Source: Candidatus Doudnabacteria bacterium (GTDB taxonomy: Bacteria > Patescibacteriota > Doudnabacteria > UBA920). From it: a DNA stretch of 64,000 bases. Shown piece after piece: positions 7,329 to 62,046 of this stretch. Every line of letters starts with the position of its first letter. Positions within the stretch are counted from its first letter, which is position 1. The notes beneath the pieces are model-generated. The model worked only from the letters and a program-made list of their open reading frames with translations. It ran no database searches and was not told the DNA's origin. A program made the translations under genes and the position numbers. The stretch spans positions 501,646-565,645 of the forward strand of contig CAWINB010000001.1 of assembly GCA_963837465.1 (NCBI GenBank). The letters are read 5' to 3'.

Positions 7329-7340
7329 GTCTGTAACCAT

Positions 7341-12470: not shown

Positions 12471-12474
12471 AACT

Positions 12475-21823: not shown

Positions 21824-21843
21824 GACAACTCCTTACCCGAAAT

Positions 21844-21972
21844 TCAGACCCTCGGGACCGGGGGAAAGTAAGCCAATACTACGCCACCTTCGGCATTGAA
21901 CACTAGCCGGGGCGGATTATTTTTGAGCTGTTCCAAGGCGGCTTCAAAAGCCGTCTCGTCTTTCTCTTTCAT
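21844..21972 (-). CDS. possible small ORF (42 aa)
   Basis: Hand-translated MKEKDETAFEAALEQLKNNPPRLVFNAEGGVVLAYFPPVPRV, with an AGAGGTG RBS. Weak evidence. Confidence 0.2.
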   Translation of the reverse strand: MKEKDETAFEAALEQLKNNPPRLVFNAEGGVVLAYFPPVPRV

Positions 21973-22027
21973 GACACCTCTTGTCCGATATTTCCATTTG
22001 AACCGTCGGACTGCGGGTCAATGCCCT

Positions 22028-41557: not shown

Positions 41558-41745
41558 AATAACAATTTAGCCTAAACCACGGGCAACCGCGGCATGGCAT
41601 TAACCAAGACTCATCCTAGGTACTGAACCCCGCGTTCAGCGCTCTAGGATGAGCCATACCCGAAAGGGTGTGGGCCGTAAGGCCAGCTGGCGCGGGGCTT
41701 TGTGATTATATACACAATATTCCTACGTCGGCAGAAAGAAAAAGC
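41558..41745 (+). ncRNA. conserved structured RNA leader, copy B
   Basis: TGgTATAAT extended -10 lies immediately upstream. The architecture matches copy A, with compensatory substitutions in the outer stem (CTCATCCTAG/CTAGGATGAG) and in the distal hairpin (GGCCGTAAGGCC). Confidence 0.5.
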
Positions 41746-42254: not shown

Positions 42255-43013
42255 ATGAACGGTTTGTTTGTGCTTTTATTTCTACTCTCAATCGCAGGAT
42301 TGATAGCAGGACTGATTAAGCCCGCGTGGTTTAATAAATTATTTGCAGGGAAAGCTAATAGGAAAAATACCGCTTTGGCCTTTGGTATTGCCATGGTCGT
42401 ATTTTTGATATTGATCAGCGTTACAAGTCCAAAAAGTAATATAGCCAGCCAACAAGCGAATGTGCAACCCCAGCAGCAGGCCGCCACGATAAGTCAAAAT
42501 GCGGTTATTCCTTCTACCACAAACACAAGCAGCCCTGCAACTGCCAAAGCGATAGCCCCGGCAGCCTCACCAAAGACAATCAAAGCTGCTCCAATTATTC
42601 CTGCCAACCCTCAACCAAAACAGCCAGCGGCTACTACACCTGCGCCTGTTGCAACCCCGCAGCCAACTCCAACTCCAACTCCACAAACAGACAATCAAAA
42701 TACTTCACCAGTATCAAATGAAACAGTTAGTCAAACAAATGCTGTTGCAAAAGCAAAAGATTATTTAAATTACTCAGCATTTTCTCATGATGGACTGGTT
42801 GCTCAATTGGAGTACGACCAATTTTCACAGGCCGATGCGGTTTATGGGGCAGATAATTCCGGTGCTGACTGGGATGCGGAGGCGGCTGCAAAGGCCAAAG
42901 ACTACATGAGCTATTCAGCTTTTTCACGCGGCAGTTTAATTGCACAGTTGGAATATGATAAGTTCACACAAGAACAAGCAGAGTACGGAGCTAACTCGGT
43001 TGGACTACAATAG
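42255..43013 (+). CDS. membrane-anchored protein with two Ltp-like (phage superinfection-exclusion lipoprotein) repeats
   Basis: Two N-terminal TM segments, a Pro/Thr/Ala-rich linker, then two repeats: AKAKDYLNYSAFSHDGLVAQLEYDQFSQADAVYGA and AKAKDYMSYSAFSRGSLIAQLEYDKFTQEQAEYGA. Confidence 0.6.
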   Translation: MNGLFVLLFLLSIAGLIAGLIKPAWFNKLFAGKANRKNTALAFGIAMVVFLILISVTSPKSNIASQQANVQPQQQAATISQNAVIPSTTNTSSPATAKAIAPAASPKTIKAAPIIPANPQPKQPAATTPAPVATPQPTPTPTPQTDNQNTSPVSNETVSQTNAVAKAKDYLNYSAFSHDGLVAQLEYDQFSQADAVYGADNSGADWDAEAAAKAKDYMSYSAFSRGSLIAQLEYDKFTQEQAEYGANSVGLQ

Positions 43014-43032
43014 GATAAATAAAATCGCTAGC

Positions 43033-43797
43033 ATGAACTCATTTAAAGACATCGCATACGAAATCCTGCGTGAATCAAACAAACCTTTGCATAGCAAAGA
43101 CATAACTGACATCGCCCTTAAACGCGGCTGGTTAAAAACGGCCGGCAAGACGCCGGAAGCGACCATGAACGCCACCATCCTTGTCGATGTTAATTCCAAA
43201 AAGGAAAAATCCCGATTTATTAAAACCGGCCCTTCCACTTATGCCTTAAATCTTCAGTTTGTGGAAACCCCTGCCACGGTAGCGGCCGAAGTCAAAGAAC
43301 AAAAAATATTCAAGATTGCCGAAGGCATATCCGAACGGCAAAAAGGCGACATCACCGAAGCCCGGGTAGCGGAATTGATAACGCTATATGGGGAGAGGTG
43401 CCTAGCCTGCTACCGGCCAATCTCGGACGATGAGGGCATCGATATTATCGTCAAAGAAAAAGGTGTGCCCAAGATTATGTACCTACAAGTTAAAAGCCGG
43501 TTTGGGGACGACTCCGGAGAAGCGTTCACAGCTACGGTAAAAACCCATAACGTAGTGGATAGTTTTTCCATGGGCATAATCTTCTGCTTTTTTGATACCG
43601 AGCGCGGCGATCTTTGGGACTATCTGTGGTTCGTGCCTGCTCCGGATTTTCTTAAAAAAGCCAACCGTTTGAGCGAGGGCAACCTGCTGGGCTTTGTGGC
43701 GGGCCGAAAGAAAAAGGAGTCCAACAAGTGGGACGAATATTTGATCGACAAGCGCGAACTGGCTAATACGATTATCCAGCAAATGAAGCGAATATAG
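43033..43797 (+). CDS. HARE-HTH N-domain protein with C-terminal restriction-endonuclease-like region
   Basis: Start placed at MNSFKDIAYEILRESNKPLHSKDITDIAL...GKTPEATMNATI (HARE-HTH signature). The C-terminal DIIVKEKG...YLQVKSR resembles a nuclease core. Confidence 0.5.
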   Translation: MNSFKDIAYEILRESNKPLHSKDITDIALKRGWLKTAGKTPEATMNATILVDVNSKKEKSRFIKTGPSTYALNLQFVETPATVAAEVKEQKIFKIAEGISERQKGDITEARVAELITLYGERCLACYRPISDDEGIDIIVKEKGVPKIMYLQVKSRFGDDSGEAFTATVKTHNVVDSFSMGIIFCFFDTERGDLWDYLWFVPAPDFLKKANRLSEGNLLGFVAGRKKKESNKWDEYLIDKRELANTIIQQMKRI

Positions 43798-43874
43798 GCC
43801 AGCCACGGTCGCCACAAGTATTGTTATTCCGACTAACTTAATCAGCGCAGACGACCTGTGGGTTTGAATTAAAA

Positions 43875-44270
43875 ATTATTCGGGCAATTAAGATGAGTGA
43901 AACAAACCGGTGAAACATTGAGAAATTACCCAAAAGATTCCCCCAAACAGTTTTCAGAACTCAATATACCCCTGATTTGGCGGGCGTCTCGGAGACAATT
44001 CCCCAAAATTTCCCCAAGGGTCTAAAATCAGCATATCAACGACAACAAAAAAGAACTATACTGCCATACCATAAAATTATTCAGGCAATTAAAGCCAGTG
44101 AAGCCATTGCCAGATTACCCAAAGGATTACCCAACAGAGTTTTATGATCACATATACCGCTGATTTGGCGGGTCAACGGGACACAATTACCCAAAATTTA
44201 CCCAAAGGTTTATTTCGGCTCAGAATGACCAAAAAGATGACCAACATATAAATAAAGAAGGTTATGGGCC
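43875..44270. repeat. two tandem ~200-bp degenerate repeats containing paired direct hexamers (TTACCCA/TTCCCCA) at ~11-bp spacing
   Basis: Units begin ATTATTCGGGCAATTAAG (43875) and ATTATTCAGGCAATTAAAG (44075). Internal sites include ATTACCCAAAAGATTCCCCCA, ATTCCCCAAAATTTCCCCA, ATTACCCAAAGGATTACCCA and ATTACCCAAAATTTACCCA. Confidence 0.6.
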
Positions 44271-44344
44271 TATTAACAAGCCTATTTTAGGGTAAGTGAA
44301 CAAAACGTGAACACCTCGTTTTATTGCAAAGCATACGGGTTATT

Positions 44345-44720
44345 TTTACATGACTAAATGCCCAAAAATGTGCCCATTGATAAGAAAAACATGAAATAAA
44401 GCCTTTTAACAAGGGTGTTTTGGGCAGGTGTGCCCAAAAAATGCCCAGCCCGCAAAATGCGAGCCTCTAAAATTGCACAAAAAAATGCACAGTGGCTGTG
44501 TAAGACATAAAAATAACCTTTTAACGAGGGTATTTTAAGTGGTACTGCACAAAAATTGCACACCTTTAAAAAATTACTATCTCCTCATTAAGAGGGTTAA
44601 TAATTTTCTCGAACCTGCTGACCCGTGGCCCTTTATGAAAAAAATACACACCGCCACTGTAAAGAGGCATAACAGCGCAATTATAAGGGGTATTTTAAGA
44701 CGATTACACAAAAATTACAC
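44345..44720. repeat. second array of degenerate tandem repeats with paired hexamers separated by A-tracts
   Basis: Sites: TGCCCA-A5-TGTGCCCA, TGCCCA-A6-TGCCCA, TGCACA-A7-TGCACA, TGCACA-A5T-TGCACA and TACACA-A5T-TACACA. The unit CCTTTTAACRAGGGTRTTTT recurs three times. Confidence 0.55.
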
Positions 44721-44766
44721 AGGTTAAAAATGGTTAAATTAAGAAGTAGGAGTTATAATTCCTCGT

Positions 44767-45663
44767 ATGAACACGGGGAACAAAAAAATATCAAAATTAC
44801 CAAGAATTCCGAAATACCAAAATCGAATATGGCATTTGAACGGTAAGTTAATGCTAATTTTGGTAGCGGTACCAGAATTTCAAAGGGAGATAAAAGCCCT
44901 ACGCAATAACGCAGATTTTAATATTCTCAGCCTTAACAAAGGCATACTTATAACCCATCCATTCCCAAATAGTGACCTATCAAGGAAAAGGGTTGAGGGG
45001 AAGATGTTAGATCGCTTTGAAGTTATATTCAACTGGTACAAGTCCAGGGGATATTTTGCCAGCAGTGATATGAGCAATCCTATAATGGCTAAGCTCGGCG
45101 AAGATCCATTTTTTACTGAGCTAAAAAGAATCGGTAAAAAATTCCACCTACCATACGAATTTTACTGCGATGCTTTTTCAGGAATTTCTGCCTATGTTTT
45201 AACTGGCCGGGCGGCGGCCCCAAGTAAGTATCCTGAAATCAGGGAAAACATGTCAGATGAAGAAAGACACCTACGCCGGTTATTGTACGAAAATAGCAAA
45301 GCGCGGATAAAGGAGTTTGAAACTAAATACCCCTTATTGCTAAAAATATTAGAGAGAACAGGTAAGCCAATACTTCGAAAAGGTAAAGATCCCTACGAAG
45401 GGTACATCAAGGAGCACTGGCAAAATTATGATAAATTAGGAAAATGGAAAAAACGTGAAATCAAATACGGACTTAAAAACTCCTCTGAACTCAAATTGTC
45501 AAGGGGTATAAAAAAATGGTCACAACCTACCACTCGCAAGATTGTCAAGAGGAGTGGTTATTCCGTAGAAAACCTCAAAACGTTTAAAAAAGACGTCAAT
45601 AAATTAACGATAAGTATATTCGGTTTTCCTATCGACGAACAAACAGTTTCTGGTAAAAAATAA
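44767..45663 (+). CDS. hypothetical protein
   Basis: 298-aa ORF downstream of the repeat arrays. Lys-rich, with no recognisable motif. Confidence 0.45.
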   Translation: MNTGNKKISKLPRIPKYQNRIWHLNGKLMLILVAVPEFQREIKALRNNADFNILSLNKGILITHPFPNSDLSRKRVEGKMLDRFEVIFNWYKSRGYFASSDMSNPIMAKLGEDPFFTELKRIGKKFHLPYEFYCDAFSGISAYVLTGRAAAPSKYPEIRENMSDEERHLRRLLYENSKARIKEFETKYPLLLKILERTGKPILRKGKDPYEGYIKEHWQNYDKLGKWKKREIKYGLKNSSELKLSRGIKKWSQPTTRKIVKRSGYSVENLKTFKKDVNKLTISIFGFPIDEQTVSGKK

Positions 45664-45761
45664 AAATCGGCCTTTATACTCACGACTGAAAAAACCTGAT
45701 GCTATATTAGCGTTAGGTTTTTAATTATGGCGAAAGTCTACGGGTCAAAATCTGCTCTCGC

Positions 45762-45968
45762 ATGGGCGGCGCCATCCCCGTGGACAACGCCCAGTCGACA
45801 GCAGATTTTTTTATGCAATTATCAGAACAGGCGTTAAAAGAATTTGAGGAAATCTGGCAACATGATCACCCGGGGAAAATACTATCCCGGGAAGAGCTTT
45901 TTAAAATTGCAAATAAAGTTATTCATATTGTTGAAATTTTATATGTTGATGCTGGGGATTTGGAGTAA
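45762..45968 (+). CDS. small hypothetical protein
   Basis: 68-aa ORF. Confidence 0.3.
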   Translation: MGGAIPVDNAQSTADFFMQLSEQALKEFEEIWQHDHPGKILSREELFKIANKVIHIVEILYVDAGDLE

Positions 45969-46244
45969 AGTAATTTAAATTCTAAATCCGCGGTATTAAC
46001 CGCATACAATTTACGACAAGAGGTCGTCGGCGAGTCCTCTATAAAAAACCGGCCGAAACCTTTCTGGTGCGTAGATTCAAATCCCCGACCCGAGTGCCGA
46101 CTTCTCGACGGGGTCCTTCATCTGCGCGGCAGGAAGTAACACGATAAACTTTGCCAGACAACAATTCAGAATTGAAGACTCTGACTGGCTGAAAGGTTAT
46201 CAATAACGTAAATATTTAATAACTAATAATTAAATCCTGATTAT

Positions 46245-46460
46245 ATGAAGGTAAAAAAAGTCGCCTACTCCGATTTGTTAACAAATAAACAAATTAACAG
46301 CTCTACTTTAGTAAGAATCCCTATAGAGCTTCATCAAAAATTAAAAATAGAGGCTGCATGCATGGGCAAAACAATCAAGGGTATTGTAACTCAAGTCATT
46401 GAAGCACATTTCAAACAAAACAGCGAAATAACTAAAAACTTGACTTATAAAAGGTATTAA
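46245..46460 (+). CDS. small ribbon-helix-helix-like DNA-binding protein upstream of the serine recombinase
   Basis: A beta-strand (VRIPIEL) followed by two helices (HQKLKIEAACMGKTIKGIVTQVIEAHF), the Arc/CopG-like pattern. Confidence 0.4.
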   Translation: MKVKKVAYSDLLTNKQINSSTLVRIPIELHQKLKIEAACMGKTIKGIVTQVIEAHFKQNSEITKNLTYKRY

Positions 46461-46495
46461 GGTATTTATATGTTAACAGCATTAACCAATTCTTT

Positions 46496-48277
46496 ATGGA
46501 AAATGGTAACAAAAAAATTAAATATTTCCTTTATTGCCGAAAAAGTTCCGAGGCCGAGGATCGGCAAGTCGCTTCCATCGAAGCGCAGATTGACGAGTTG
46601 GAAAAACTTGCCCAAAATTTGAAACTGGAAATTGTCGACATTATTAGGGAAACCAAATCAGCCAAAGCCCCTGGCAGGCAACTATTCAATAGCATGATCG
46701 CACGGATTGATAAAGGCGAAGCCCAGGGAATAATTTGTTGGAAACTTGACCGCCTGTCCAGAAATCCTGTTGACGGAGGTTTAATAAGCTGGATGCTCCA
46801 GCAAAACACAATAAGACACATTCAAACGTATGGTGGCAGTTACTATCCGACTGATAATGTCGTAGTTATTGCCGTCGAACTTGGTGTCGCCAACCAGTAC
46901 GTGCGGGACTTGTCAGTAAACGTTAAGCGCGGTTTTAGGAAAAAACTACAGGACGGAAATCCGACAGGGATGGTTCCCCAAGGTTACTTAAATAGTATGA
47001 CCTTGGAGCGAGGGTCCAACATAACTCTCAAAGATCACGAGCGCTTCCCGTTGGTGCGCCGGATGTGGAGCATGATGCTCAGCGGCAATTATAATCCGCA
47101 AGAGATTCTAAAGATTGCAAATGGCGAATGGGGCTACAAAACACTGAAGCGAAAGAAACTCGGCGGCAAAGCGCTGTCACGCAGCTCCATTTACCAAATG
47201 TTCACAAACCCTTTTTATTACGGCTTTTTACTGGAACACAAAACCGGCGAGTTACACCAGGGTAGCCACGAGCCGATGGTCAGCAAAGAGGAATTCGACA
47301 AGGTGCAGATCTTATTAGGCAGCAAGGGAATGAAACGCGCTCCGCACACTAAGCAATTTGCCCATACCGCCCAAATTGGATGTGGCACCTGTGGCTGCCA
47401 AATTTGCGCCCATGAAAAGTTTCAGATTATTTGCAGCGTTTGTAAATTTAAATACGCCTATAACCTAGATATCCATCCTTGTTGTCCCAACTGCAAAACC
47501 AAAGTTAAGGATATGAAAAAACCAAAGATCCTGCACTACGTTTATTACGGCTGTAGCCGGCGCAAAAATACCGAAACCTTTTGTTGTGCGGAACGCTCAA
47601 TTCAACAGGAAGAGCTGGAGGGGCAAATTAAAAAATATTTGTCGACAATAACCATCAGACAGGAATACGTGGATTGGGCACTGAAGCATTTAGAGGAATC
47701 AAAAAGCGATAAGGCCCAAACTAAAGTGTCCATAGCGGAGTCACTGGAAAAGGCTTTGGCTGATGTTGAAAAAAGATTGGACGGCCTAGTAGAGATGAGG
47801 TCGTTAAAAGAGCTTAGCCAAGAGGAATTCCTCGCGAGAAAACAGCCGCTGGATGCCGAACGGCAGCGAATCAGGGACTTAGTGGCAAAACAAAAGAAGA
47901 GCGGACAGAATGGCAATTTTCAAACGACAAAGGCGCTGACGTTCGCCGAGCGGGCGCTGCGGGAGTACGATAAAGGCGACCTTAACAAGAAACGGGCTAT
48001 AGTTGCCGAGTTAGGTTCGAACCTAACTTTATCCGCCAAAAACCTTAGTGTTTCCGCCGAAGAACCGTTCCAAATCCTAGTTGAGGCGACAAAGTGTATA
48101 GCCGACTTAAACCCTACGTTCGAACCTGCAATTCAAGCTGTGAATAAAAGAGAAAAGCACGCTTTAGGCGTGCTTAATCCCACTTGGCTCAGCGGCTGGA
48201 TTGCGGTCGCCCCTTTGGGCAACTTTCGGAGGCTTTTTGGAGGCCTGCGCTGGGCACTCGGGTCAGAGGTTTTTTGA
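46496..48277 (+). CDS. large serine recombinase
   Basis: Catalytic YCRKSSEAEDRQVASIEAQ, a recombinase domain, and an extended Cys-rich zinc ribbon (CGTCGCQICAHEKFQIICSVC...CCPNC). Confidence 0.85.
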   Translation: MENGNKKIKYFLYCRKSSEAEDRQVASIEAQIDELEKLAQNLKLEIVDIIRETKSAKAPGRQLFNSMIARIDKGEAQGIICWKLDRLSRNPVDGGLISWMLQQNTIRHIQTYGGSYYPTDNVVVIAVELGVANQYVRDLSVNVKRGFRKKLQDGNPTGMVPQGYLNSMTLERGSNITLKDHERFPLVRRMWSMMLSGNYNPQEILKIANGEWGYKTLKRKKLGGKALSRSSIYQMFTNPFYYGFLLEHKTGELHQGSHEPMVSKEEFDKVQILLGSKGMKRAPHTKQFAHTAQIGCGTCGCQICAHEKFQIICSVCKFKYAYNLDIHPCCPNCKTKVKDMKKPKILHYVYYGCSRRKNTETFCCAERSIQQEELEGQIKKYLSTITIRQEYVDWALKHLEESKSDKAQTKVSIAESLEKALADVEKRLDGLVEMRSLKELSQEEFLARKQPLDAERQRIRDLVAKQKKSGQNGNFQTTKALTFAERALREYDKGDLNKKRAIVAELGSNLTLSAKNLSVSAEEPFQILVEATKCIADLNPTFEPAIQAVNKREKHALGVLNPTWLSGWIAVAPLGNFRRLFGGLRWALGSEVF

Positions 48278-48514: not shown

Positions 48515-51172
48515 ATGAGTTCTGAACAAAGGGATGGTCAACATCCTATGTTCGATAAAATAGAGCGGGCCGCAGTAGTCGAAGAGCCTCATCCCAAGCC
48601 TGAAGTTCAAGGCAATCCTGAAGCCAGGGCGGAAGAGCTTTTTGCTTTATGGCAGGATTTTCGCCGCGCTAGCATCGACTCACATATTAAACGTCGTAAG
48701 TATAAAAAAGAGCATCCGACGGAAGAATTTAATGACCCAAACGGCGACAAATTAAACAAAGTTCGCTCGGCTCTTTCGGAACGCTGGAGCGACCCCGCTG
48801 TCCAGGCTCTATTTAAAAAAAGAGTCGGCGAAGCAGCTGTGGAATGGGGCAAAATTAAGAAGCCGTTAAAGGAATACAAAACTATCCAAAGCGGCCTGCA
48901 AGCCTCTCAAGCAGACTTAGAAAAACTATACCGGGAAGTTTTTGAACACCGGGGCAAAGACCCGGATGAGTTAACGCAGATCCAGATTGCCGAACTTTCC
49001 GCCCAAGCTGACTCCCAAAAAAACCAAGTCGAAGCAATGGAACAAAGCAGCCCGGAATTGTCGGCGCAGCTTTCTTTTGAACGGTTAAAAGATTATCAAA
49101 AACAATTGTCGCGGGACGGTTTTATCTGGACGGCATCACGGGAAAAATATTTTGAAAAAATTATTGACCATTTGGTTGTAGTAAACCAAAATCGGCCCCT
49201 GCTTTTAGCCGGGGAAACCGGCACCGGCAAAACCCGATTGGCGCGTGCCGTATCCAAAAGGCTTACCGGCAAAAATCCCTATGAAGTCGGTGAAGAAGCC
49301 AAGACGGATATTCGCCCCTTATTAGGTTCACGGGCGATTGATGAAAAAGGTTCTTATATCAATTACGGCCAACTGGGACAGGCCCTAAGCGGCAAAGAAA
49401 CTTCGCGGGATACCAAACCCGGAGCCGGCGGTATTTTTTATATGGACGAAATGAACGGCTATCCGGGCGACGCCTTGCGTTCACTGGTTAAGCAGATTTC
49501 CGGCAGAAGGCCCGGGGAAGAAATCACTTTTGCGGCCTGGGCCGGACAGAAAGAAAAGCTGTCGCAGGATTTTGGTTTTTTAGGCTCGGCTAATTTGCCT
49601 TCCGAAAAGCATCCTGACCGCGCTGATTTGCCTGTTGAAGTTGCCCGCGAACTGGGGTCTCTTGAAATTGATTATCCTCCGCAGTCGGCCGAAGACCCTG
49701 AACTCTACGAAATGATGTTGGCTGGTTTGATGGATCAAAACGGCAGAATTCGCGTGCCGCAGGAAGCCTTGGCCCCTGAATACGAAGATGTCGTTGATGC
49801 GGCCACCAAAGAAAAACATAAGCGATTAAAAACCGAACCCGAATCCGGCGGCGCATTGTGGCGGTTTGCCAACTTGGTTGCCGATGTTCAAAAAAGCTAT
49901 AAAGGCCAGGACAATGCCTTAACGTCAACTTTAAGGGACGCATCTCATTTGCGGGCGGCGGTTTTGGATCCCGGCTTGGTGCTGTCGTGGCTGGCGGCTT
50001 ACAGAAAAGCGGCAATGCGTCGTAATGTTGATTTGCAGACATTCTTGGGTGAAAAACTGGAAACCTGGGCGGGACAGAAAATTTATCCCGAGGAAGACAG
50101 AAATTTGCTTAAACAATTCGTTGTTAAATTTAACCTTGAAACTCCCGACCGTCCGGTTAACCATAAACAAACAATTTTATCCCCGGCGGAAATAGGCAGG
50201 CTGTCGCCGCGCGTGCCCAGGGAAGCCCAAATCATGGAAAACGAGGCACGCCCTACCGAAGCCATGGCAATTTTGGAAAATGGCACCCAGGTTTTGTACA
50301 ACCTGGAAAGCAAGAACCCGGCAAGCGGCAGCCGTGTCGTGAAAAAGGGCGATCGCAGCCGCCAGACTTTTGTGTTTAAAGGTTTTGTTATAGGAGAGCC
50401 GCGGGATCATGCTTTAATAGAAAGCTCCACCGGCAAGCTGGAAACCGTCAGCCCTTCTGACTTTGCAAGGAATTGGGAAGCCGCCTCTTTAGGTTTCAGT
50501 GAAAAATTTGAAGGGCGGGAAATTAAACTGGATGTGCTGGAAGCCAGGGCGAAATCCGAGAAGTTTTATAAAGAACATAATTTAAGCGAATTTGCGGCCA
50601 ACTTACCCAAAGATATCAGGTTCTCCCCGGATAGCGAAGCCAAGATCAGGGAAGCTTTAAAAATGGGTTTTGACAGGGCTATGGTTTTACCCGCAACTTC
50701 GGTTCAGGGCCAGTATCAAGACAAGCTGTTGACTGAAATGCAGGCTGGCTACGCCACTGCCGACCAATTCTGGTCTGAAAAACCTAAAACCGTGGCTACT
50801 CGAAACCGTCCGGCTAAAGCCTACCTGTTTCTTTACAGCAGCGGAGCGATACCGCAGGAAACCAAAAATTTAAACCAGACTCAAACCGAAGCGCTATTCC
50901 GCCAAAAACACTGGAATGGCTTAACACTGGCCGAATTCCGCCTGACCGAGCGGCTGCATTTTGAAGCTGACGGAAACCACAATTTCCATAGCTGGAATAA
51001 CGACGCCAAGCTTTCGAACTGGACTAGGCTTTTAGATAGCGCTGATGCTTCTGGTGCCGCGGCTGCCCGCTGGAATCCGGACAATTCGCGCGTCTATTTC
51101 TACTGGCGCGATCCGGCGTCTGTCCATCCGAGGTTGGGCGCCCGTCCCGCGGTCGTTGTAGAAATCCTTTAG
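48515..51172 (+). CDS. DGR target protein: AAA_5/MoxR-like ATPase with C-terminal variable (CLec/FGE-like) region
   Basis: Walker A LLAGETGTGKTRLA. The C-terminal 40 codons coincide with the VR, whose differences from the TR fall on TR adenines. Confidence 0.8.
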   Translation: MSSEQRDGQHPMFDKIERAAVVEEPHPKPEVQGNPEARAEELFALWQDFRRASIDSHIKRRKYKKEHPTEEFNDPNGDKLNKVRSALSERWSDPAVQALFKKRVGEAAVEWGKIKKPLKEYKTIQSGLQASQADLEKLYREVFEHRGKDPDELTQIQIAELSAQADSQKNQVEAMEQSSPELSAQLSFERLKDYQKQLSRDGFIWTASREKYFEKIIDHLVVVNQNRPLLLAGETGTGKTRLARAVSKRLTGKNPYEVGEEAKTDIRPLLGSRAIDEKGSYINYGQLGQALSGKETSRDTKPGAGGIFYMDEMNGYPGDALRSLVKQISGRRPGEEITFAAWAGQKEKLSQDFGFLGSANLPSEKHPDRADLPVEVARELGSLEIDYPPQSAEDPELYEMMLAGLMDQNGRIRVPQEALAPEYEDVVDAATKEKHKRLKTEPESGGALWRFANLVADVQKSYKGQDNALTSTLRDASHLRAAVLDPGLVLSWLAAYRKAAMRRNVDLQTFLGEKLETWAGQKIYPEEDRNLLKQFVVKFNLETPDRPVNHKQTILSPAEIGRLSPRVPREAQIMENEARPTEAMAILENGTQVLYNLESKNPASGSRVVKKGDRSRQTFVFKGFVIGEPRDHALIESSTGKLETVSPSDFARNWEAASLGFSEKFEGREIKLDVLEARAKSEKFYKEHNLSEFAANLPKDIRFSPDSEAKIREALKMGFDRAMVLPATSVQGQYQDKLLTEMQAGYATADQFWSEKPKTVATRNRPAKAYLFLYSSGAIPQETKNLNQTQTEALFRQKHWNGLTLAEFRLTERLHFEADGNHNFHSWNNDAKLSNWTRLLDSADASGAAAARWNPDNSRVYFYWRDPASVHPRLGARPAVVVEIL
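51048..51169 (+). repeat. DGR variable repeat (VR)
   Basis: 122 bp matching the TR at 51412-51533 with 14 mismatches, 13 of them at TR adenines. Confidence 0.8.
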
Positions 51173-51411
51173 TCTTTGTATTTTAATGTTTTCTTTTTTT
51201 ATTTTTGTTTTTATCCTCGAAAATTTTTTATTTTAACCTTTCGGCTAATGAAACCACTCTGCAAAGAGATTGGTTCGCCGACTCTCAATCCATAAACGGA
51301 TTGAACAAGACAGTAAACAACGACGTTCCTTGTGAGAATACCGGTCAGGGATAGCTCCGCGGAGTGTCCCGCGCGTTATGGATGGATCAAGGAATACGGG
51401 GCGGGTGGGCC

Positions 51412-51533
51412 CTTCTGGTGCCGCTAATGCCAACTGGAATCCGGACAATTCGCGCGTCAATTTCAACTGGAACGATCCGGCGAATGTCAATCCGAAGTTG
51501 GGCACCCGTCCCGCGGTCGTTGTGGGCATAGGG
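51412..51533 (+). repeat. DGR template repeat (TR)
   Basis: Non-coding copy with AAC-rich codon positions (ANANWNPDNSRVNFNWNDPANVNPK if translated). Confidence 0.8.
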
Positions 51534-51534
51534 G

Positions 51535-51903
51535 TTATCTGTTACCCGGCTGGTTGCGGATGTATTTGATCCAACCGCTGAGCATTTTGCTTATCTCCTC
51601 CAAATTGGCCATCAGCTGGTAAAATTGGGTGTTGACGATAATGTTGTTTTCACAACACAGCCGTACCAGCAATTTGCATAACTCGCATTTGGAATAAGCT
51701 TTCAGCAGGCCGCTTTCCCGGAGCGGCAGGGGCATGGCATTGGCCTCAAAAATATATTCCAGTATGGCTAAAAGGGAACGATCCAGCACCTGGCCCAAAG
51801 TATAACGCAACGGTTTGGGAAAGTCGGCCAGCAGGGGCAAAAGGATTTGATAGGTTTTATAAGTTTTAACCACCACCGGCGGTTCAAAGGAAGTTTGGGT
51901 CAT
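51535..51903 (-). CDS. avd: Avd-like four-helix-bundle accessory protein (IVS/Avd family)
   Basis: FPKPLRYTLGQVLDRSLLAILEYIFEAN matches the Avd/IVS pattern FPKxExYxLxxQxxR...NIxEG. On the opposite strand to the TR and RT. Confidence 0.7.
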   Translation of the reverse strand: MTQTSFEPPVVVKTYKTYQILLPLLADFPKPLRYTLGQVLDRSLLAILEYIFEANAMPLPLRESGLLKAYSKCELCKLLVRLCCENNIIVNTQFYQLMANLEEISKMLSGWIKYIRNQPGNR

Positions 51904-52902
51904 ATGGACTTATTGCCTTTTAATAAATTTGCAAAAGTTGAAAATCTTTATGATGCTTGGGATCGCTTCACGCCCGGCAAACGGGAGCGCCCGGATGTGG
52001 TGGCCTTTGAGCGCCGCTTGGAAAACCAACTGCAACAGCTTTCGGAGGATTTAAGCGGCGGGCTTTATGTGCACGGGGACTATAAAAGTTTTTTTGTGCG
52101 CGACCCGAAGTTCAGGATTATACACAAAGCCAAAGTCAGAGACCGGGTTGTGCATCAGGCGCTTTACAGCGTACTCTACCGGCTGTTTGACCGGCGGTTC
52201 TATTTTGATTCGTATTCGTCCAGGGTTGGCAAAGGTACCCAGGCGGCGGTGCTCCGAGTCTGGGAATTTATTCGAAAGGAAAGCAGTAATTTTAACCAGC
52301 AGGCTTATGTTTTGCATGGCGATGTTGATGATTTTTTTGCCAGCGTTGACCACCAGATTTTATTAACGTTTATCCGCAAACGCCTTAAAGAGCCAAATTA
52401 TTTGCGGCTTTGCACGACCATAATTGACAGTTTCCATGTCACCCCGGGCAAAGGAGTGCCGCTGGGCAATTTGACCTCGCAGATTTTCGCCAATATTTAT
52501 CTGCACGAATTGGATTACTTTGTGAAGCAGACTTTGGGCGTGGAAAAGTATGTCAGGTACAACGACGACTTTTATTTAGTCAGCAAAGATAAATCCGAAC
52601 TTTCCGGCTTGAGCCTGACCATCAGGCGGTTTTTAGCTGAAAAGTTAACGCTGTCTTTGCCGGAGGAAAAAACAATACTCAGAAGCCTAAACAACGGCGT
52701 GGATATTTTGGGGGTGGTGGCTTTTCCTTACGGGCTGGTGCCAAGAAAAAGAGTCAGGACGGCGGTTTTGGAAGTGGCTGCGCAAGCCCGAAAAACAGGA
52801 TATAATAGCTATGTGGTCAAACAGCTGAATTCATATATTGGTTTGCTGGGAATTTCCAAGAGTTTTTTACTGAAAGAACGCTTGCGTTTAAGCATCGGTT
52901 AA
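51904..52902 (+). CDS. DGR-type reverse transcriptase
   Basis: LGNLTSQIFANIYL (the DGR-specific SQ motif), catalytic YVRYNDDFYL, and motif A LHGDVDDFF. Confidence 0.85.
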   Translation: MDLLPFNKFAKVENLYDAWDRFTPGKRERPDVVAFERRLENQLQQLSEDLSGGLYVHGDYKSFFVRDPKFRIIHKAKVRDRVVHQALYSVLYRLFDRRFYFDSYSSRVGKGTQAAVLRVWEFIRKESSNFNQQAYVLHGDVDDFFASVDHQILLTFIRKRLKEPNYLRLCTTIIDSFHVTPGKGVPLGNLTSQIFANIYLHELDYFVKQTLGVEKYVRYNDDFYLVSKDKSELSGLSLTIRRFLAEKLTLSLPEEKTILRSLNNGVDILGVVAFPYGLVPRKRVRTAVLEVAAQARKTGYNSYVVKQLNSYIGLLGISKSFLLKERLRLSIG

Positions 52903-55624: not shown

Positions 55625-55733
55625 TGTCGCTGAGGTTTTGCCGGTAGGTGGAGATACAAAAAGGGTCCCCCACCTACCGGCGGCAACCTTTCGGATGCCG
55701 TCCACCTGTCCTTGCGAACAGGCACCTCAGCGA
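55625..55733. other. nested-helix structured element in an intergenic region
   Basis: Outer pairing GTCGCTGAGGT ... ACCTCAGCGAC encloses GCCGGTAGGTGG ... CCACCTACCGGC (11 bp). GTCGCTGAGG occurs a third time at 55761. Confidence 0.35.
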
Positions 55734-56444
55734 CGAGTGGCGGTTGGGAGACCGTCTTTATGTCGCTGAGGATGAAGCCATATCCGAAATTAGATTTCGG
55801 GGTTAGGCGATGGTGAAATGTGCTTATATTATATATAAATTTTGCGGGTTAGGCAACGAGATTGGTTGTATTAAAAATTACCAGAATTGGTAGTGCTTCC
55901 GTTGGACGACTGTGCCAGTGTTACGGACTTAAGTAGTATTTTAACATTCAATAGTGATACCTAAGCGGCGCCAAAAAAATTTAGCAATTATTGACTGTGG
56001 AATTTAAACTCTGGCTATGCCCACGATTCCTTAAATGCCCTGTAGGTCTTAGTGTTCAACCTTATTGCCCTAATCCTGTGAATTGCCAGTTTGAGGTATC
56101 ATCTGGCCTAAGGCAACGGGCTTACTTCAGGTATCATGTGGGATGGCACAAGTCTTAAGTTTGACAGTCAAATTAAAAAGAGTTACTATATTTATATACA
56201 GCCATCGTGAACTAGAAAGTGTATGGTTTAGGTTTTCCAAAAGAGTCCCGGAGTCGAAACCTCTTCGGGAAAATTCGGCCATATTGCTCTAAAACGGAAA
56301 ATAATAAAAAATAAAATATCCAATTAATATTTAAAGTTTGATGGATTAATAAAACTTAATAAGACCATCCAATCAGAATGGACGGCAGTTTTTTGCTATG
56401 CGGAAAACTAAAACAATCAAGTATCAAAATTAAAGTTATAACCC

Positions 56445-57788
56445 ATGAAAGAAAAATTATTAAGCGAGCTTAAGTTGAAAGTTGAGTATGTGTCAGTGGC
56501 TGCGCTGAAACCCAGCGAGTATAATCCACGCAAATTCTCCAAAGAGCAGTTTGAGCAGCTAAAAACTAGCATTAAAGAGCACTCCTTGGTAGAGCCTTTG
56601 GTGGCGAACTCCGCGCCGAATAGAAAGAACATTTTAATAGGAGGACACGGTAGGTTAAAAGCCGCCAAGGAATTGGGGCTTAAAACCGTGCCGGTGGTTT
56701 ACGTCAGCATTCCCGATATCGAGACCGAGAAGGATCTAAACGTGAGACTGAATAAGGCGGTCGGAGAATTTGATCTGGAGTTGCTGTTAAAGAATTTCAG
56801 CGAGGAATTTTTGTCCGGAGTTGGATTTTCCAGTGAGGAATTGGATAAAATTTTTGCTGTTGAGGAGATACCGGAATTATTTGATCTGGAAAAAGAACTT
56901 AAGAAACTCAATATTCAAAAGGTCAGCGTTAAACAAGGTGACGTCTACGAGATTGCCGGTTGTCGGGTTATGAACGGTAACAGTACCGTTGAAGCCGATA
57001 TGATAAAACTCATGGACGGCCAGAGGGCGGATATGTGTTTGACGGACCCACCTTATTTACTAGACTACCTACACGGCAAAAAGAAAAAAGACGCTACTAA
57101 AGGTTTTGGCCTTAAGCGTGATCGTACCTATCTAGGGACTACGGAACTGCCGGAAAATTTTACCGACCTGTGGATGGCTAGTATCGCCAAAATCCAAAAG
57201 CCGGATTTCTCTATTATAGTTTATGAGAATCCAAAGAACCTGCGAACCATCTGGAACGCTTTAGAAAAGTATTGGAAATACCGTAACACTATAATTTGGC
57301 ATCTGCCAAATCGGGTACAGGGCTTCTCCGCTAAGTATAAGTTTTTCAACAAATGGGACTTCGCCATGGTCGGTACCTCCGGTCAGGTGTCCTTAAACGA
57401 CGAGCCGGAAAAGGATGCGCTATTGCAAGAGGAGTATGAGTCCGCTTTATTTGCCACCTCCGGCAAGCCGCATTGGGAGTCTTATGCCAAGGGCAAAAAG
57501 TATTGCCCGACTGACTTTATTGAGTATAAAGCGTCGGATAAAAAATCATCGGGCCAAGGAATAATCTTTGGCACTAAGCCAGTGGAGATTCTGATTCCAT
57601 ATATTAAGGTGCTGACTAGGCGTGATGAATTGATAGTGGAACCGTTCGGGGGGTCGGGGTCAACAGCGGTAGCAGCCATAAAAATGAAGCGCCGTTGTTA
57701 CCTGATGGAAAAATCTAACGTCTACACGGAAGTCATATTGAACAGACTTTCGAAGTTAACCGGGCAAAAGCCAAGGAGGGTGGCATGA
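56445..57788 (+). CDS. ParB-like nuclease domain fused to DNA methyltransferase (copy 3)
   Basis: ParB motif ILIGGHGRLKAAKELG, catalytic CLTDPPYLLDYL, and EPFGGSGSTAVAA. Confidence 0.85.
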   Translation: MKEKLLSELKLKVEYVSVAALKPSEYNPRKFSKEQFEQLKTSIKEHSLVEPLVANSAPNRKNILIGGHGRLKAAKELGLKTVPVVYVSIPDIETEKDLNVRLNKAVGEFDLELLLKNFSEEFLSGVGFSSEELDKIFAVEEIPELFDLEKELKKLNIQKVSVKQGDVYEIAGCRVMNGNSTVEADMIKLMDGQRADMCLTDPPYLLDYLHGKKKKDATKGFGLKRDRTYLGTTELPENFTDLWMASIAKIQKPDFSIIVYENPKNLRTIWNALEKYWKYRNTIIWHLPNRVQGFSAKYKFFNKWDFAMVGTSGQVSLNDEPEKDALLQEEYESALFATSGKPHWESYAKGKKYCPTDFIEYKASDKKSSGQGIIFGTKPVEILIPYIKVLTRRDELIVEPFGGSGSTAVAAIKMKRRCYLMEKSNVYTEVILNRLSKLTGQKPRRVA

Positions 57789-58225
57789 GCCGGAAAAATT
57801 ACCAACAGGCAAAACAAAAAGCGGCCGTTATCGAACAGCTAAAAAAATTTCCGATTGTTCAGTTAGCCGTTCAGAAGGCCGGAGTATCCAGACCCAGTTA
57901 TTACCAATGGCGGAAACAGGATGCGGAATTCGCTAAAACCGCGGATGAGGCCATGGCCGAAGGCATCCTGTTTATTAACGACATCGCCGAAGGTAATATG
58001 ATATCTCTGATAAACGAAAAGGACATGCGAAGCATTCGTTTTTGGCTCACGCACCGTCATCCCGTCTATGCCGCAAAACTGCAGCTCGAAGGGAAGTTGG
58101 AGTTATCGGACGAGGCTTTAAGTAGCGAGCAGCAGGAAATCGTAGACAGGGCCTTGGGATTGCTCGCCGGGGATAAAAGCCAACTCGGCGAACAAAAAGG
58201 AGGCAACCATGAACCTCACGCCTGA
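57785..58225 (+). CDS. terminase small-subunit-like HTH protein (copy 3)
   Basis: GVSRPSYYQWRKQDAEF HTH signature. Confidence 0.55.
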   Translation: MSRKNYQQAKQKAAVIEQLKKFPIVQLAVQKAGVSRPSYYQWRKQDAEFAKTADEAMAEGILFINDIAEGNMISLINEKDMRSIRFWLTHRHPVYAAKLQLEGKLELSDEALSSEQQEIVDRALGLLAGDKSQLGEQKGGNHEPHA

Positions 58226-59738
58226 CATCACTGAGCGGATGGGTAAAGATGCCGGTATCCGCCGCGCCATAACAAAAAAGAGCCATGAAGCTTTCTTTGC
58301 CTTCTATCTGCCGCATTACTTAGAGTACCAAAGCGCATTGTTCCATCACGAGCTGTTTGCCGCTACCGAAGACAGGACTGCTAAACTTTTGGTCGTCCAA
58401 GGTTTTAGGAACAGCGGCAAATCAACAATATTATCTTTGTCTTTTCCCCTTTGGCTCGCCATAAGCGGGCAGGCGCAGGAAATCATCATCATTTGCAAAA
58501 ACCAGATGTTGGCCAGACATGCGATGAAAAATATTCAGGCAGAATTAGAAGAGAATGAACAGCTAACCAAGGATTTTTATCCCTTTGATTTTAGGGAGGA
58601 TGCCTCGGACGCTTACATCGTAAGCTTAAAACGCTACCGCGCCGAAATCGTGGCCGTTTCCCGCGAGCAAAGCGTGCGCGGCTTAAAACATCGGCAGTAT
58701 AGGCCACAGGCTATTATTATTGACGATCCGGATGACATCGGGTCGGTAAAAACTTTGGAAAGCCGGGAGAATACCTGGCAATGGATGATGCGGGATATTG
58801 TGCCATTGGGGGATAAAAATACCAGAATTGTGGTTATCGGTTCGCCGCTTCATGGCGATTCGCTGATTATGCGCCTACACGATAAGATCGAAAGCGGACA
58901 GATGCGGGGACTGTCCATGCGCATTCCCATTCTTGACCAAAACGGCAAACCCGCTTGGCCTGCCAAATTTCCGACTCAGAAGGAAATCCAAGAGGAGAAA
59001 ATGAAGATGGATGAGATCAGTTGGAACAGGGAAATGATGCTGTTGCTTACTCCTGAGCTCGGACAGCTGGTCACCTTAGAGGACATAGTTAAGTATAATA
59101 ACCTACCTCCCCGTGCGAGTACTTGCGGCTATATTGCCACCTGGTCGGGAGTGGACTTCGCCATCGGCCAGAAGCCGGGCAGCGATTATACGGCTATCGT
59201 GACAATACAAATACATGTCGTTAATGGAAAGCTGAAAATTTACGTCCTGCCGAACCCCGTTAACCGCCACTTGGATAATTATGGCAATATCGCCGCCATG
59301 AAGCAGGTAATCGACAATGCCAAACAAACAGGCCACAGCAAAATGTTTATGGAGGCCAACTTATTTCAAGTTTCGTTTTACCAGCAGATGATCGGCGCTG
59401 GCTATAACCAGATAGCGCCAGTTACGGTCAGTGGTGATAAGCTAACAAGGTTACAACCGACAGCTATGATGATCAAGGATGGTCGGCTACTATTTCCCAA
59501 AGAGGGCTGCCGTGACCTCATTTTCCAACTGGTAGATTTTGGCTCGGCACGCAAAGACGATTTGGCGGATGCCTTGAGCTTGGTCGTCAATGAAGCTATT
59601 AACGAACATAATAAAAATCTCTCGCTGTACGGTTACTTGGATTGGGTAGAATCTAACGGCGGACCGTATATGGACATTGACGGCAGCAAACCGACCAGGA
59701 GATTTCAAAGCCTCATCCCGGAAGGCCAAGAAGAATGA
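58209..59738 (+). CDS. terminase large-subunit-like protein (copy 3, canonical Walker A)
   Basis: GFRNSGKST (GxxxxGKST), Walker B IIIDDPDD, and nuclease-region similarity to copies 1 and 2. Confidence 0.7.
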   Translation: MNLTPDITERMGKDAGIRRAITKKSHEAFFAFYLPHYLEYQSALFHHELFAATEDRTAKLLVVQGFRNSGKSTILSLSFPLWLAISGQAQEIIIICKNQMLARHAMKNIQAELEENEQLTKDFYPFDFREDASDAYIVSLKRYRAEIVAVSREQSVRGLKHRQYRPQAIIIDDPDDIGSVKTLESRENTWQWMMRDIVPLGDKNTRIVVIGSPLHGDSLIMRLHDKIESGQMRGLSMRIPILDQNGKPAWPAKFPTQKEIQEEKMKMDEISWNREMMLLLTPELGQLVTLEDIVKYNNLPPRASTCGYIATWSGVDFAIGQKPGSDYTAIVTIQIHVVNGKLKIYVLPNPVNRHLDNYGNIAAMKQVIDNAKQTGHSKMFMEANLFQVSFYQQMIGAGYNQIAPVTVSGDKLTRLQPTAMMIKDGRLLFPKEGCRDLIFQLVDFGSARKDDLADALSLVVNEAINEHNKNLSLYGYLDWVESNGGPYMDIDGSKPTRRFQSLIPEGQEE

Positions 59739-60487: not shown

Positions 60488-60680
60488 TTTAACAATTTAA
60501 TCAAAGTAGCCTAAACCCGGCACAATGCCGGGCATGGCGAATAACCAAAACCTATAGAAAGTACTGAACCCGTCGTTCAGCTATCTTTCTATAGGTCATA
60601 CCCGAAAGGGTGTGGGCTCGCAAGAGCCATGCTGGCGGCGGGCTTTGTGTTGTCCGGATGCCAGCAGAAAGGTTATAAAC
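60488..60680 (+). ncRNA. conserved structured RNA leader, copy C
   Basis: A TATAAT box at 60479 precedes it. The architecture matches copy A, with outer stem CCTATAGAAAG/CTTTCTATAGG and distal hairpin GCTCGCAAGAGC. Confidence 0.5.
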
Positions 60681-61200: not shown

Positions 61201-62046
61201 ATGTCCACAAAAGGCCTTACCATACTATTGCCAGACGGTGATCCCAACGGCATTAAAATTATTGAAGTTAACGGTTGGGTTGGCAAGGCCATTATTATCC
61301 CGAGGGCCAAGCTTAAATTTATTAAAGATCGACCGGAAAGTAATCTGCCAGCACTGTATTTTTTGTTTGGAGAGAATATGGATGAGACCAAACCCAGCGT
61401 TTACATTGGGGAAACCGAAACCTGTTACCAGAGATTGACTAATCATGAAAGCAATAAGGATTTTTGGAATTTAGCCATTATTTTCATTGGCAGTTTGGAT
61501 AAGGCAGATGTCAGGTATCTAGAAAACAAAGCCGTGGAGGAAGCCCAAAGTTCCGGCCGCTACCTGATGACCAATGGTAATTCCCGTAATGAAAATACCT
61601 TATCCGAGTTTAAAAAATCAGCGGCAGACAGTTATTTTGAAAGTATTAAGTTTGTCATGGCAGTGCTGGGTTACACTTTGTTTGAGCCGGTCTTTGCAGA
61701 TACCCATACAGCCGACGAAGTATATTATTTAAAAGCCTCTGGCGCGGAAGCCAAAGGCAGTCTTTTGGATACAGGAGAGTTTATTGTATTTAAGGGCTCT
61801 ACCGTGCGCTTAGCCGAAGTGCCTTCTATGCAAGGCACAGGCGGCTCAAAGCTTAGGCAGCTAATGAGCCGGGATGATGATGGCAGGCTTAAAAAAGTTA
61901 GCGACGAATCCTATCAGTTAACCCAAGATGTAGTCTTTACCAGCCCAAGTCTGGCTGCGGACGTGGTTACTGGCAGATCCAGCAACGGCTGGATATCATG
62001 GAAAGATAGCCAGGGGCGAACACTGGATGAGAATAAGAGGAAGTAG
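61201..62046 (+). CDS. GIY-YIG-like nuclease N-domain with DUF4357-like C-terminal domain (copy 2)
   Basis: Nearly identical to the 10293-11138 product over the full 281-aa length. Confidence 0.55.
   Translation: MSTKGLTILLPDGDPNGIKIIEVNGWVGKAIIIPRAKLKFIKDRPESNLPALYFLFGENMDETKPSVYIGETETCYQRLTNHESNKDFWNLAIIFIGSLDKADVRYLENKAVEEAQSSGRYLMTNGNSRNENTLSEFKKSAADSYFESIKFVMAVLGYTLFEPVFADTHTADEVYYLKASGAEAKGSLLDTGEFIVFKGSTVRLAEVPSMQGTGGSKLRQLMSRDDDGRLKKVSDESYQLTQDVVFTSPSLAADVVTGRSSNGWISWKDSQGRTLDENKRK

Follow-up and report, generated by a model that had tools for sequence, protein, structure and literature searches.

What is the role of a non-coding stretch, crowded with short direct repeats, that lies just upstream of a recombinase operon in a Candidatus Doudnabacteria genome? 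The window analysed here, by which we mean the whole 64,000-nucleotide stretch of contig CAWINB010000001.1 (assembly GCA_963837465.1, forward-strand positions 501,646 to 565,645), is numbered from its first letter. The stretch at issue runs from the stop codon of a gene encoding a HARE-HTH protein (43797) to the start codon of a gene encoding a protein of 298 amino acids (aa) at 44767. A first reading of the letters alone, hereafter the original prediction, had noticed iteron-like paired hexamers here, in two blocks, and had proposed replication-origin iterons or an array of transcription-factor sites. Here, we confirm the repeat observation, which proves stronger than first described. Six tandem modules, SU1 to SU6, each contain four hexamers of the same orientation at 0, +12, +72 and +83 bp. 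From these sequences, we consider it probable that some protein binds double-stranded DNA at the array. More tentatively, the array may be the control region of the recombination operon of a defence island, offering six protein-docking modules of distinct specificity.

Between 43897 and 44738 there are 12 perfect direct pairs of 6–10-mers, against 0.6 expected by chance. A count of perfect direct 6-mer pairs with a period of 10–14 bp gives 26 in 43897–44723, compared with 0–5 per kb elsewhere in the window. Merged pair sites with a period of 11–13 bp number 12 in 43862–44766, where 1000 dinucleotide-preserving shuffles yield a mean of 0.61 ± 0.78 and a maximum of 4; other 905-bp stretches of the window contain at most three such sites each. 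The array sequence is also identical between two assemblies, all three of whose differences lie outside it. Because the enrichment is so far above chance, and the sequence the same in both assemblies, the direct-pair repeats can be taken as real. The intergenic stretch is A-rich on the plus strand (A 0.38; GC about 0.37–0.38), and the array is the most A+T-rich part locally. A coding function was considered and rejected, as a reading frame does not fit the 11-, 12- and 13-bp periods, and the open reading frames that overlap the array are short (20–69 aa).

All modules follow one plan. Pair 1, with a 6-bp spacer, is followed by a core of 53–54 bp and then by pair 2, with a 5-bp spacer; the hexamers have the general form T-V-M-M-C-A, that is, T-[ACG]-[CA]-[CA]-C-A. 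The spacing is 12/60/11 in four modules, 13/60/11 in SU1 and 12/59/11 in SU3, and is thus kept within ±1 bp. With the pairs 60 bp apart, the four sites fall within about ±50 degrees of one helical face, by our estimate at 10.5 bp per turn. Distances from one module to the next vary (188, 109, 134, 115 and 159 bp), and the constraint therefore acts inside the modules. The features of the stretch are these:

43872–43926, plus strand: left arm of long unit 1, AAAATTATTCGGGCAATTAA followed by the pair GTGAAACA-N5-GTGAAACA (43897–43904 and 43910–43917; period 13)
43927–44016, plus strand: SU1, with TACCCA at 43927, (C)CCCCA at 43940 and TCCCCA at 44000 and 44011; 13/60/11; core with ATATACCCCTGATTTGGCGGG
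44073–44115, plus strand: left arm of long unit 2, AAAATTATTCAGGCAATTAA then GCCAGTGAAGCCATTGCCAG; homologous to 43872–43926
44116–44204, plus strand: SU2, with TACCCA at 44116, 44128, 44188 and 44199; 12/60/11
44226–44313, plus strand: SU3, with TGACCA at 44226 and 44238 and TGAACA at 44297 and 44308; 12/59/11
44268–44286, plus strand: pair GCCTATT-N5-GCCTATT in the core of SU3, from the direct-pair scan
44359–44447, plus strand: SU4, with TGCCCA at 44359, 44371, 44431 and 44442; 12/60/11; core with CCTTTTAACAAGGGTGTTTT
44474–44562, plus strand: SU5, with TGCACA at 44474, 44486, 44546 and 44557; 12/60/11; core with CCTTTTAACGAGGGTATTTT
44586–44612, plus strand: apparent degenerate copy of the downstream gene's ribosome-binding and 5′ region, ATTAAGAGGGTTAATAATTTTCTCG here versus ATTAAGAAGTAGGAGTTATAATTCCTCG at 44738–44766
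44633–44721, plus strand: SU6, the gene-proximal module, with TACACA at 44645, 44705 and 44716 and a degenerate first site (TTATGA, 44633); 12/60/11
44722–44738, plus strand: extra pair GGTTAAA-N3-GGTTAAA, period 10, between SU6 and the gene start
44754–44759, plus strand: perfect TATAAT, 7 nt before the ATG at 44767, with TGGTTA 17 bp upstream

Much of the original description is borne out by these features. The two tandem units of about 200 bp seen in its first block correspond to 43872–44024 and 44073–44212, which are 72% identical, and every pair that it named in the second block is present in the sequence. CCTTTTAACRAGGGTRTTTT, taken then for a recurring unit, is exact in SU4 and SU5 only, and degenerate in SU3 and SU6. 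While the repeats are real, the division into two blocks gives way to one continuous series of six modules once the pairs that had been missed are added, namely TGACCA (44226/44238), TGAACA (44297/44308) and GTGAAACA (43897/43910); the 12/60/11 spacing of each module's four hexamers had also gone unrecorded. Three pairs lie beyond the four-hexamer sites: GTGAAACA (43897, 43910), GCCTATT (44268, 44280) and GGTTAAA (44722, 44732), each present twice. Phased A-tracts had been reported as well. There is one A-tract inside each pair, but no regular phasing along the region, and the periodicity of AAA, with peaks at both 12 and 10.5 bp, does not settle on one helical period. Tandem Repeats Finder, which had been put forward as a check, gives one 23-bp array only, because the units are too diverged.

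How did this series arise, and what maintains it? In fixed register, the modules are 40–61% identical, and their best local alignments reach about 70% (SU1/SU2, 72% over 153 nt; SU4/SU5, 70% over 97 nt; SU3/SU5, 73% over 49 nt). By this measure they are old duplicates. Each has its own hexamer, in order TCCCCA, TACCCA, TGACCA/TGAACA, TGCCCA, TGCACA and TACACA. Five of these form a series of single-base steps (TCCCCA, TACCCA, TGCCCA, TGCACA, TACACA), with TGACCA/TGAACA as a side branch. The graded variation that caught the eye at the outset is real, and is better put as concerted, module-specific hexamers joined by single-base steps. Mean hexamer identity is 5.39 of 6 positions within modules versus 4.14 of 6 between modules, and the within-module value was reached in none of 20,000 label permutations. 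Between SU4 and SU5, the same C-to-A change is seen in all four hexamers, and the remaining 20 of 24 hexamer positions are unchanged; given that about 40% of the surroundings differ, the neutral chance of 20 unchanged positions is approximately 0.6^20, or about 4e-5 by our own estimate.

Could the hexamers match simply because they were copied recently within each module? In any one module, the flanks of pair 1 and pair 2 are dissimilar, each resembling its counterpart in other modules. Because these flanks are unrelated, the matched hexamers are not recent intra-module copies, and recent duplication of this kind is ruled out. Nor are the pairs fresh slippage or tandem duplications, since just 6–10 of the 11–12 bases in each period recur. 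The simplest account of these patterns would be purifying selection on four matched sites, with a fixed geometry and a module-specific sequence. Such selection makes protein binding likely.

The same data bear on whether the array has any function at all. As a relic, it would be the tandemly duplicated and now decaying upstream region of the 44767 gene, and its pairs would be short slippage duplications. Consistent with this, no relative of the array was detected in the searches described below, the closest related locus (L114) lacks it, one pair is imperfect among the oldest-looking modules (in SU1), and one site has been lost from SU6. The tail of SU5 resembles the ribosome-binding region in decayed form, and this likeness, although weak (local alignment z = 2.6), suggests that the modules arose through tandem duplication of the region upstream of the 44767 gene. 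Neutral decay, on the other hand, cannot yield four identical changes in one module, nor can it leave 20 positions unchanged amid approximately 40% divergence. It also fits poorly with spacing kept within ±1 bp, with unrelated pair flanks, and with periods in which only part of the bases recur. We regard a functionless relic as very improbable.

Least probable among the explanations weighed here is that the region acts as RNA, either as an array of small-RNA genes or as a long structured leader, with hexamers that would serve as seed motifs, protein-binding motifs or realignment repeats for reverse transcriptase. TATTTT on the plus strand (TAAAAT on the minus strand) lies 8–9 bp from pair 2 in SU3, SU5 and SU6. 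There is one minus-strand promoter-like site, TTCACG-16-TAAAAT (44311–44284), and two minus-strand terminator-like hairpins have T-runs that coincide with pair spacers. A reverse transcriptase of a diversity-generating retroelement is encoded 7 kb downstream of the array, and identity of two direct copies, whatever their sequence, is what a realignment mechanism would presumably need. However, the promoter-like and terminator-like sites are not conserved across modules. The −10-like element reads TGTTTT in SU4 and is missing from SU1 and SU2. Compared with shuffles, neither sigma-70-like promoters (2 found, 3.2 expected) nor intrinsic terminators (3 found, 1.6 expected) are enriched. RNAalifold returns no consensus pairs for the plus strand and, for the minus strand, three weak ones; a search of the region against Rfam gives nothing beyond chance (E = 5.9 and 7.9), and the reverse transcriptase has its own template and variable repeats elsewhere.

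Several further ideas were tried and set aside. Mutagenesis of the hexamers by the retroelement does not account for constant A-tracts and a final A that never vary, and here again the template and variable repeats are elsewhere. Restriction-modification targets are not indicated, as the hexamers occur elsewhere in the window without depletion or enrichment. Promoters of the sigma-54 or lambda CII type fit some hexamers only, and for mimicry of tRNA anticodons or codons the flanking bases are unfit. The best explanation is that the array acts as a double-stranded-DNA regulatory sequence, rather than as RNA or as protein-coding sequence. Indirectly, the fixed geometry, the matched hexamers in diverged modules and the lack of conserved RNA structure lend support to the early suggestion of transcription-factor or other protein sites.

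Which protein might bind? The array ends 46 bp upstream of an operon that encodes an HTH-like protein, a 68-aa protein, an omega-like ribbon-helix-helix protein and a large serine recombinase, and that lies at the edge of the defence island. The genes that adjoin the array are as follows, L114 and L118 being related loci:

42940–43797, plus strand: HARE-HTH protein gene, upstream of the array; its homology with L114 ends at the stop codon
44767–45663, plus strand: 298-aa protein gene, first of the operon; very small family, found at the edges of mobile/defence islands
45762–45968, plus strand: 68-aa protein gene; related-looking small proteins (from a reading of translations) lie upstream of related recombinases in L118 and L114
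46245–46460, plus strand: gene for a 71-aa omega/Arc-like ribbon-helix-helix protein, candidate binder of the hexamer pairs
46496–48277, plus strand: large serine recombinase gene, the island's terminal gene

The 71-aa product is probably a ribbon-helix-helix protein. It matches Pfam Omega_Repress with E = 3.3e-5 and an Arc-like PHROG with E = 3e-4, followed by the omega entries 2bnw and 1irq of the PDB (E about 0.008) and by Mnt (E = 0.3). An indexed search leaves the 298-aa protein an orphan; an exhaustive one finds ten remote relatives. On readable contigs, these lie at island edges, most of them directly upstream of a serine or tyrosine recombinase; one homologue (P0127) sits beside an Ltp gene, a DUF5659 gene and a gene for an AAA_25 protein. 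Single members of the family give weak HTH or winged-helix matches. The protein itself falls into no Pfam, NCBIfam, PHROG or PADLOC family, and no NTPase family was recognised. A structure model based on 11 sequences is all-helical (pLDDT 71, compared with 39 for the single-sequence model) and has no significant PDB match; sigma-70 chains fill the top PDB rows with E = 0.26 or worse, and were not relied on. Between the 68-aa gene and the ribbon-helix-helix gene, at 45969–46244, lies a 275-bp non-coding gap that is richer in GC, in which several hairpin-forming inverted repeats can be read (e.g., CCCCGACCCGAGTGCCGACTTCTCGACGGGG), and for which Rfam gives no match at the gathering score.

Because the array ends so close to the recombination operon, we tentatively read it as that operon's control region. 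Each module would be bound at its two hexamer pairs, and the bound proteins would form one complex over the core. A direct repeat of the form hexamer-N5/6-hexamer is a classical minimal site for proteins that sit side by side, one helical turn apart. The proteins could be of the ribbon-helix-helix kind (ParR, Arc, omega) or of the winged-helix kind (OmpR/PhoB), binding as neighbouring dimers or tandem monomers. SU6, with its TACACA hexamers, would be the likely operator of the operon's own ribbon-helix-helix protein. The five other modules would accommodate regulators whose specificity has changed, such as those of related islands, or, less likely, would be sites of graded affinity for one regulator; we favour several specificities because the four sites match perfectly per module. 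The perfect TATAAT, together with TGGTTA, reads as a candidate promoter for a leaderless mRNA, though the promoter scan did not call it. The repeats with their geometry, the concerted hexamers of each module, the lack of conserved RNA structure and of coding potential, and the surrounding genes are what the analysis shows; protein binding, the identity of the binder, control of a promoter and multiple specificities are all things that we infer here.

In a bolder version of the proposal, the array would be a bank of six or seven orthogonal variants of an operator or assembly site, each co-evolved with a different member of one family of small DNA-binding proteins, encoded by sibling islands or phages of the same population. 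With six variants ahead of its recombinase operon, the defence island could sense, or be moved by, six relatives. The closest known precedent is that of plasmids with several oriT variants, which allow mobilisation by different helpers. In the array, such variants would be packed into a single tandem series that preserves the individual base steps by which specificity changed. We consider such a bank doubtful.

A number of observations weigh against a control region of this type. The 71-aa protein scores 24.5 bits against Omega_Repress, under the Pfam curated cut-off of 33.3, and our choice of it as candidate binder is a guess. Omega heptads are contiguous, whereas the sites of the array are paired and 11–13 bp apart. 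No paralogues of the operon's small proteins occur within the window, no sigma-70-type promoter is conserved in the module cores, and the lack of promoter and terminator enrichment noted above counts here too. To place six or seven regulators on one intergenic region, none of them identified, is an expensive assumption. Finally, no array is found upstream of the relatives of the recombinase (L114–L118) or of the 298-aa protein (L247–L253, L374–L377), which indicates that the recombination module can generally do without it.

In L114, the closest related locus, the HARE-HTH gene is 87.6% identical over 769 nt and the recombinase gene 95.5% identical over 1679 nt. In place of the 2.7 kb that separate these genes in the window, L114 has 3.66 kb of other genes and no array (L114 923–4580 versus window 43797–46511), with a faint counterpart of the 68-aa gene only. 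As the flanking genes are kept and the segment between them is different, the sequence comparison marks the array, so far unique, as part of a swappable cassette position adjoining the serine recombinase gene. The original prediction had named two things that would together count against it, and the one on conservation in related genomes holds for this closest locus, where the repeats are missing. One short segment of L114 (1088–1125) was considered as a homologue of the SU1 core, and is too short to be trusted.

Wider searches gave a similar picture. No relative of the array was found in plasmid and phage collections (blastn, distant mode). Among viral contigs, an exact 16-mer scan with the cores gave 112 single chance matches, none with an array; a core-plus-pair pattern had no matches; and a sequence-free geometry pattern found, among the matches listed, simple 12-bp tandem repeats or coding repeats only. 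In metagenomes, the matches listed for the core-plus-pair pattern include no relative: one human-gut repeat accounts for 77 of the 120 listed, and the two matches whose hexamers are equal stand alone. In viral contigs, neither the HARE-HTH protein nor the alignment of the 298-aa family found anything, and a genome scan with the recombinase found one distant relative. In a separate observation (L118 9133–9600 and 7640–8457), L118 contains a related module of small protein, ribbon-helix-helix protein and serine recombinase, with several different short direct pairs packed upstream of the ribbon-helix-helix gene (GAAAGTGA, CGACCGAAA, AACCTCAA and TTAGGA, each twice), as well as an 820-bp repeat-rich intergenic region upstream of a 221-aa gene. 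The L118 repeats are not homologues of the array, but are similar in style.

If the modules are bound by proteins of different specificity, they would record a recognition code that shifts one base at a time with the rest held fixed, and would supply ready-made orthogonal operators, along with a route to study how cross-talk between mobile islands is avoided or exploited. If one protein binds all modules, the array would be a natural affinity series that controls excision of a defence island. Either way, it bears on the poorly understood regulation of serine-recombinase islands. As a single locus without relatives, its biological weight is uncertain.

The window as a whole is a mosaic of mobile and defence genes. 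On the upstream side of the array are genes for a type III restriction-modification pair, a GmrSD/HEC-05 protein, a bacterial PH-domain protein and an Ltp superinfection-exclusion lipoprotein, together with a LOOT RNA and the HARE-HTH gene. LOOT RNA (RF03000) scores above the gathering threshold at four places: 9585–9713, 41569–41684 and 60508–60628 on the plus strand, and 55679–55809 on the minus strand. The three plus-strand copies each lie 0–70 bp upstream of a small gene for a bacterial PH-like domain (DUF4429+SHOCT at 9768, bPH_2 at 41752 and a weak bPH_3 match at 60629), which suggests that LOOT RNA is a cis-acting leader of this class of small genes. Downstream of two such units are genes for 281-aa DUF4357/RAMA-domain proteins (10293–11138 and 61201–62046); these proteins are 95% identical, so that the unit of LOOT RNA and small gene must have been duplicated recently. 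A module of ParB-domain DNA methylase, small terminase and large terminase is present in three diverged copies (5540–9413, 11832–14443 and 56445–59738; 36–71% protein identity), the second with a truncated methylase, which indicates that several phage-like or satellite-like elements lie side by side.

The diversity-generating retroelement spans 48515–52902, with a variable repeat at about 51048–51161, a template repeat at about 51412–51525, bAvd at 51535–51903 on the minus strand and reverse transcriptase at 51847–52902. The C-terminus of its 885-aa AAA_5 (McrB-like) protein is repeated downstream, and the well-aligned mismatches fall at adenines of the downstream copy. The target of this retroelement is an intracellular-looking ATPase, not a tail fibre. 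Further off, the block at 15000–22000 has a GC content of 0.50–0.57, compared with about 0.42 elsewhere; it encodes a VWA protein, a MoxR-like AAA ATPase and a DEAD/ResIII helicase on the minus strand, and is probably a separately acquired defence-like cassette.

How does the array compare with known direct-repeat systems? Those of plasmid partition come to mind first. ParR of plasmid R1 requires a minimum of two 11-bp repeats; for ParR_B of Clostridium perfringens, the requirement is two 8-bp repeats 3 bp apart (PMC9426499). R1 parC has two separate repeat sets (PMC2241845), and the title of Dam and Gerdes 1994 (cited in PMC9426499) speaks of ten direct repeats flanking the promoter. Like these sites, the array has short direct repeats of one orientation, about one helical turn apart, with a minimal unit of at least two; as in R1 parC, two repeat sets bracket a core directly upstream of an operon that encodes a small, probable ribbon-helix-helix protein. 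With a period of 12 bp for pair 1 (13 bp in SU1) and of 11 bp for pair 2, the sites are spaced as expected of a type II partition locus. Among related plasmids, the repeat sequence diversifies along with ParR specificity, giving about 10 ParMRC families in Clostridium perfringens (PMC9426499); related replicons thus have differing repeats matched to their own ParR, and here the hexamers are module-specific. In contrast to R1 parC, which has 5 + 5 identical 11-bp repeats in one copy, the array has 2 + 2 hexamers in six tandem modules, and it sits in an integrated island rather than on a plasmid, with no actin-like ParM gene recognised.

These likenesses raise the possibility that each module is a centromere-like (parC), pac, oriT or similar site for the protein of a different helper or sibling element, so that six related machineries could segregate, package or mobilise the island. 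The succession of repeats, core and repeats in one orientation matches the R1 parC layout, and the matching of lineage-specific repeats to protein specificity is documented for the Clostridium perfringens ParMRC families. The operon includes an omega/ParR-like ribbon-helix-helix gene, and the three diverged ParB-methylase/terminase modules in the window mean that several packaging specificities coexist in the genome. Yet no gene for a ParM, ParA or TubZ motor, a relaxase or a terminase lies beside the array. The terminase modules are more than 12 kb away, with no similar four-site module near them. Nor was a ParM ATPase recognised in the 298-aa protein, which has no Pfam or NCBIfam match and whose all-helical model has no significant PDB match; no NTPase family was recognised in it with Pfam, NCBIfam, PHROG or PADLOC. 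To our knowledge, no element has six such sites in tandem. We consider sites for maintenance, packaging or transfer unlikely.

The omega repressor of pSM19035 offers a second comparison, as it gives the best matches of our candidate binder. Omega binds cooperatively to contiguous, gapless 7-bp heptads, non-palindromic and in direct orientation, at least four of which are needed for full activity (PMC9499535). Omega sites are thus short and direct-oriented, like those of the array; omega operators have a single specificity, whereas the hexamers of the array are module-specific. The omega heptad is WATCACW, and its CACA end is shared with TGCACA and TACACA.

Boxes of the OmpR/PhoB family (PhoP, WalR, PmrA) are direct repeats of the form hexamer-N5-hexamer, the WalR consensus being TGTWAH-N5-TGTWAH. 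Like them, the array has 6-bp half-sites that recur every 11 bp across a 5-bp A/T-rich spacer; the second pair of each module fits this description, and on the reverse strand TGTGTA-N5-TGTGTA resembles the WalR consensus. Among the scanned genes of 22–63 kb, there is no response regulator or other OmpR-type winged-helix gene. We know of no OmpR/PhoB boxes that form six tandem modules with stepwise different half-sites.

The last comparison is with replication origins. In classical iteron origins, there are three or more iterons, about 17–22 bp long and near-identical within one origin. Staphylococcus aureus pathogenicity island (SaPI) origins are different, having 6–12 penta- or hexanucleotide iterons divided equally between the two sides of an AT-rich centre; these iterons are island-specific, matched to the winged-helix domain of Rep, run in opposite directions on the two sides, and lie just downstream of rep (PMC9371898). 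Like these origins and those of phage-inducible chromosomal islands (PICIs), each module has hexanucleotide sites in two sets around a central region, and in SaPIs too the sites are island-specific and co-vary with the binding protein. It has fewer of them, however, with 2 + 2 hexamers around its 53–54-bp core; all four point in the same direction, the core is not AT-rich, and there is no adjacent rep helicase gene.

On an origin reading, an initiator would bind the hexamers as iterons and the cores would melt, along the lines of SaPI/PICI origins or iteron plasmids. That SaPI origins are likewise built from island-specific hexanucleotide iterons (PMC9371898) fits this idea, as does the position of the array in the most A+T-rich part of its neighbourhood (GC 0.37). 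The 298-aa homologue P0127 is followed by the DUF5659 gene and then by the AAA_25 protein, which we take to be helicase-like. Against this, the cores are 54–68% AT, and the richest 40-bp window reaches 80%, under the 99th percentile of the whole window (82%). The array contains no DnaA box (TTWTNCACA), its elements are 6–10 bp long and differ between modules, and L114, its closest relative, does without it. Co-directional sites would also be at odds with the opposed SaPI iterons downstream of rep. Among the neighbouring proteins, no Rep, helicase or primase family was found with Pfam, NCBIfam, PHROGs or PADLOC, and the gene immediately upstream is that for the HARE-HTH protein. The replication-origin iterons of the original prediction, with no initiator family nearby, are quite improbable. 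What sets the array apart is its regular geometry and the concerted, stepwise variation of its hexamers. It is a member of no family that we tested, and its nearest counterparts are the direct-repeat operator and centromere sites.

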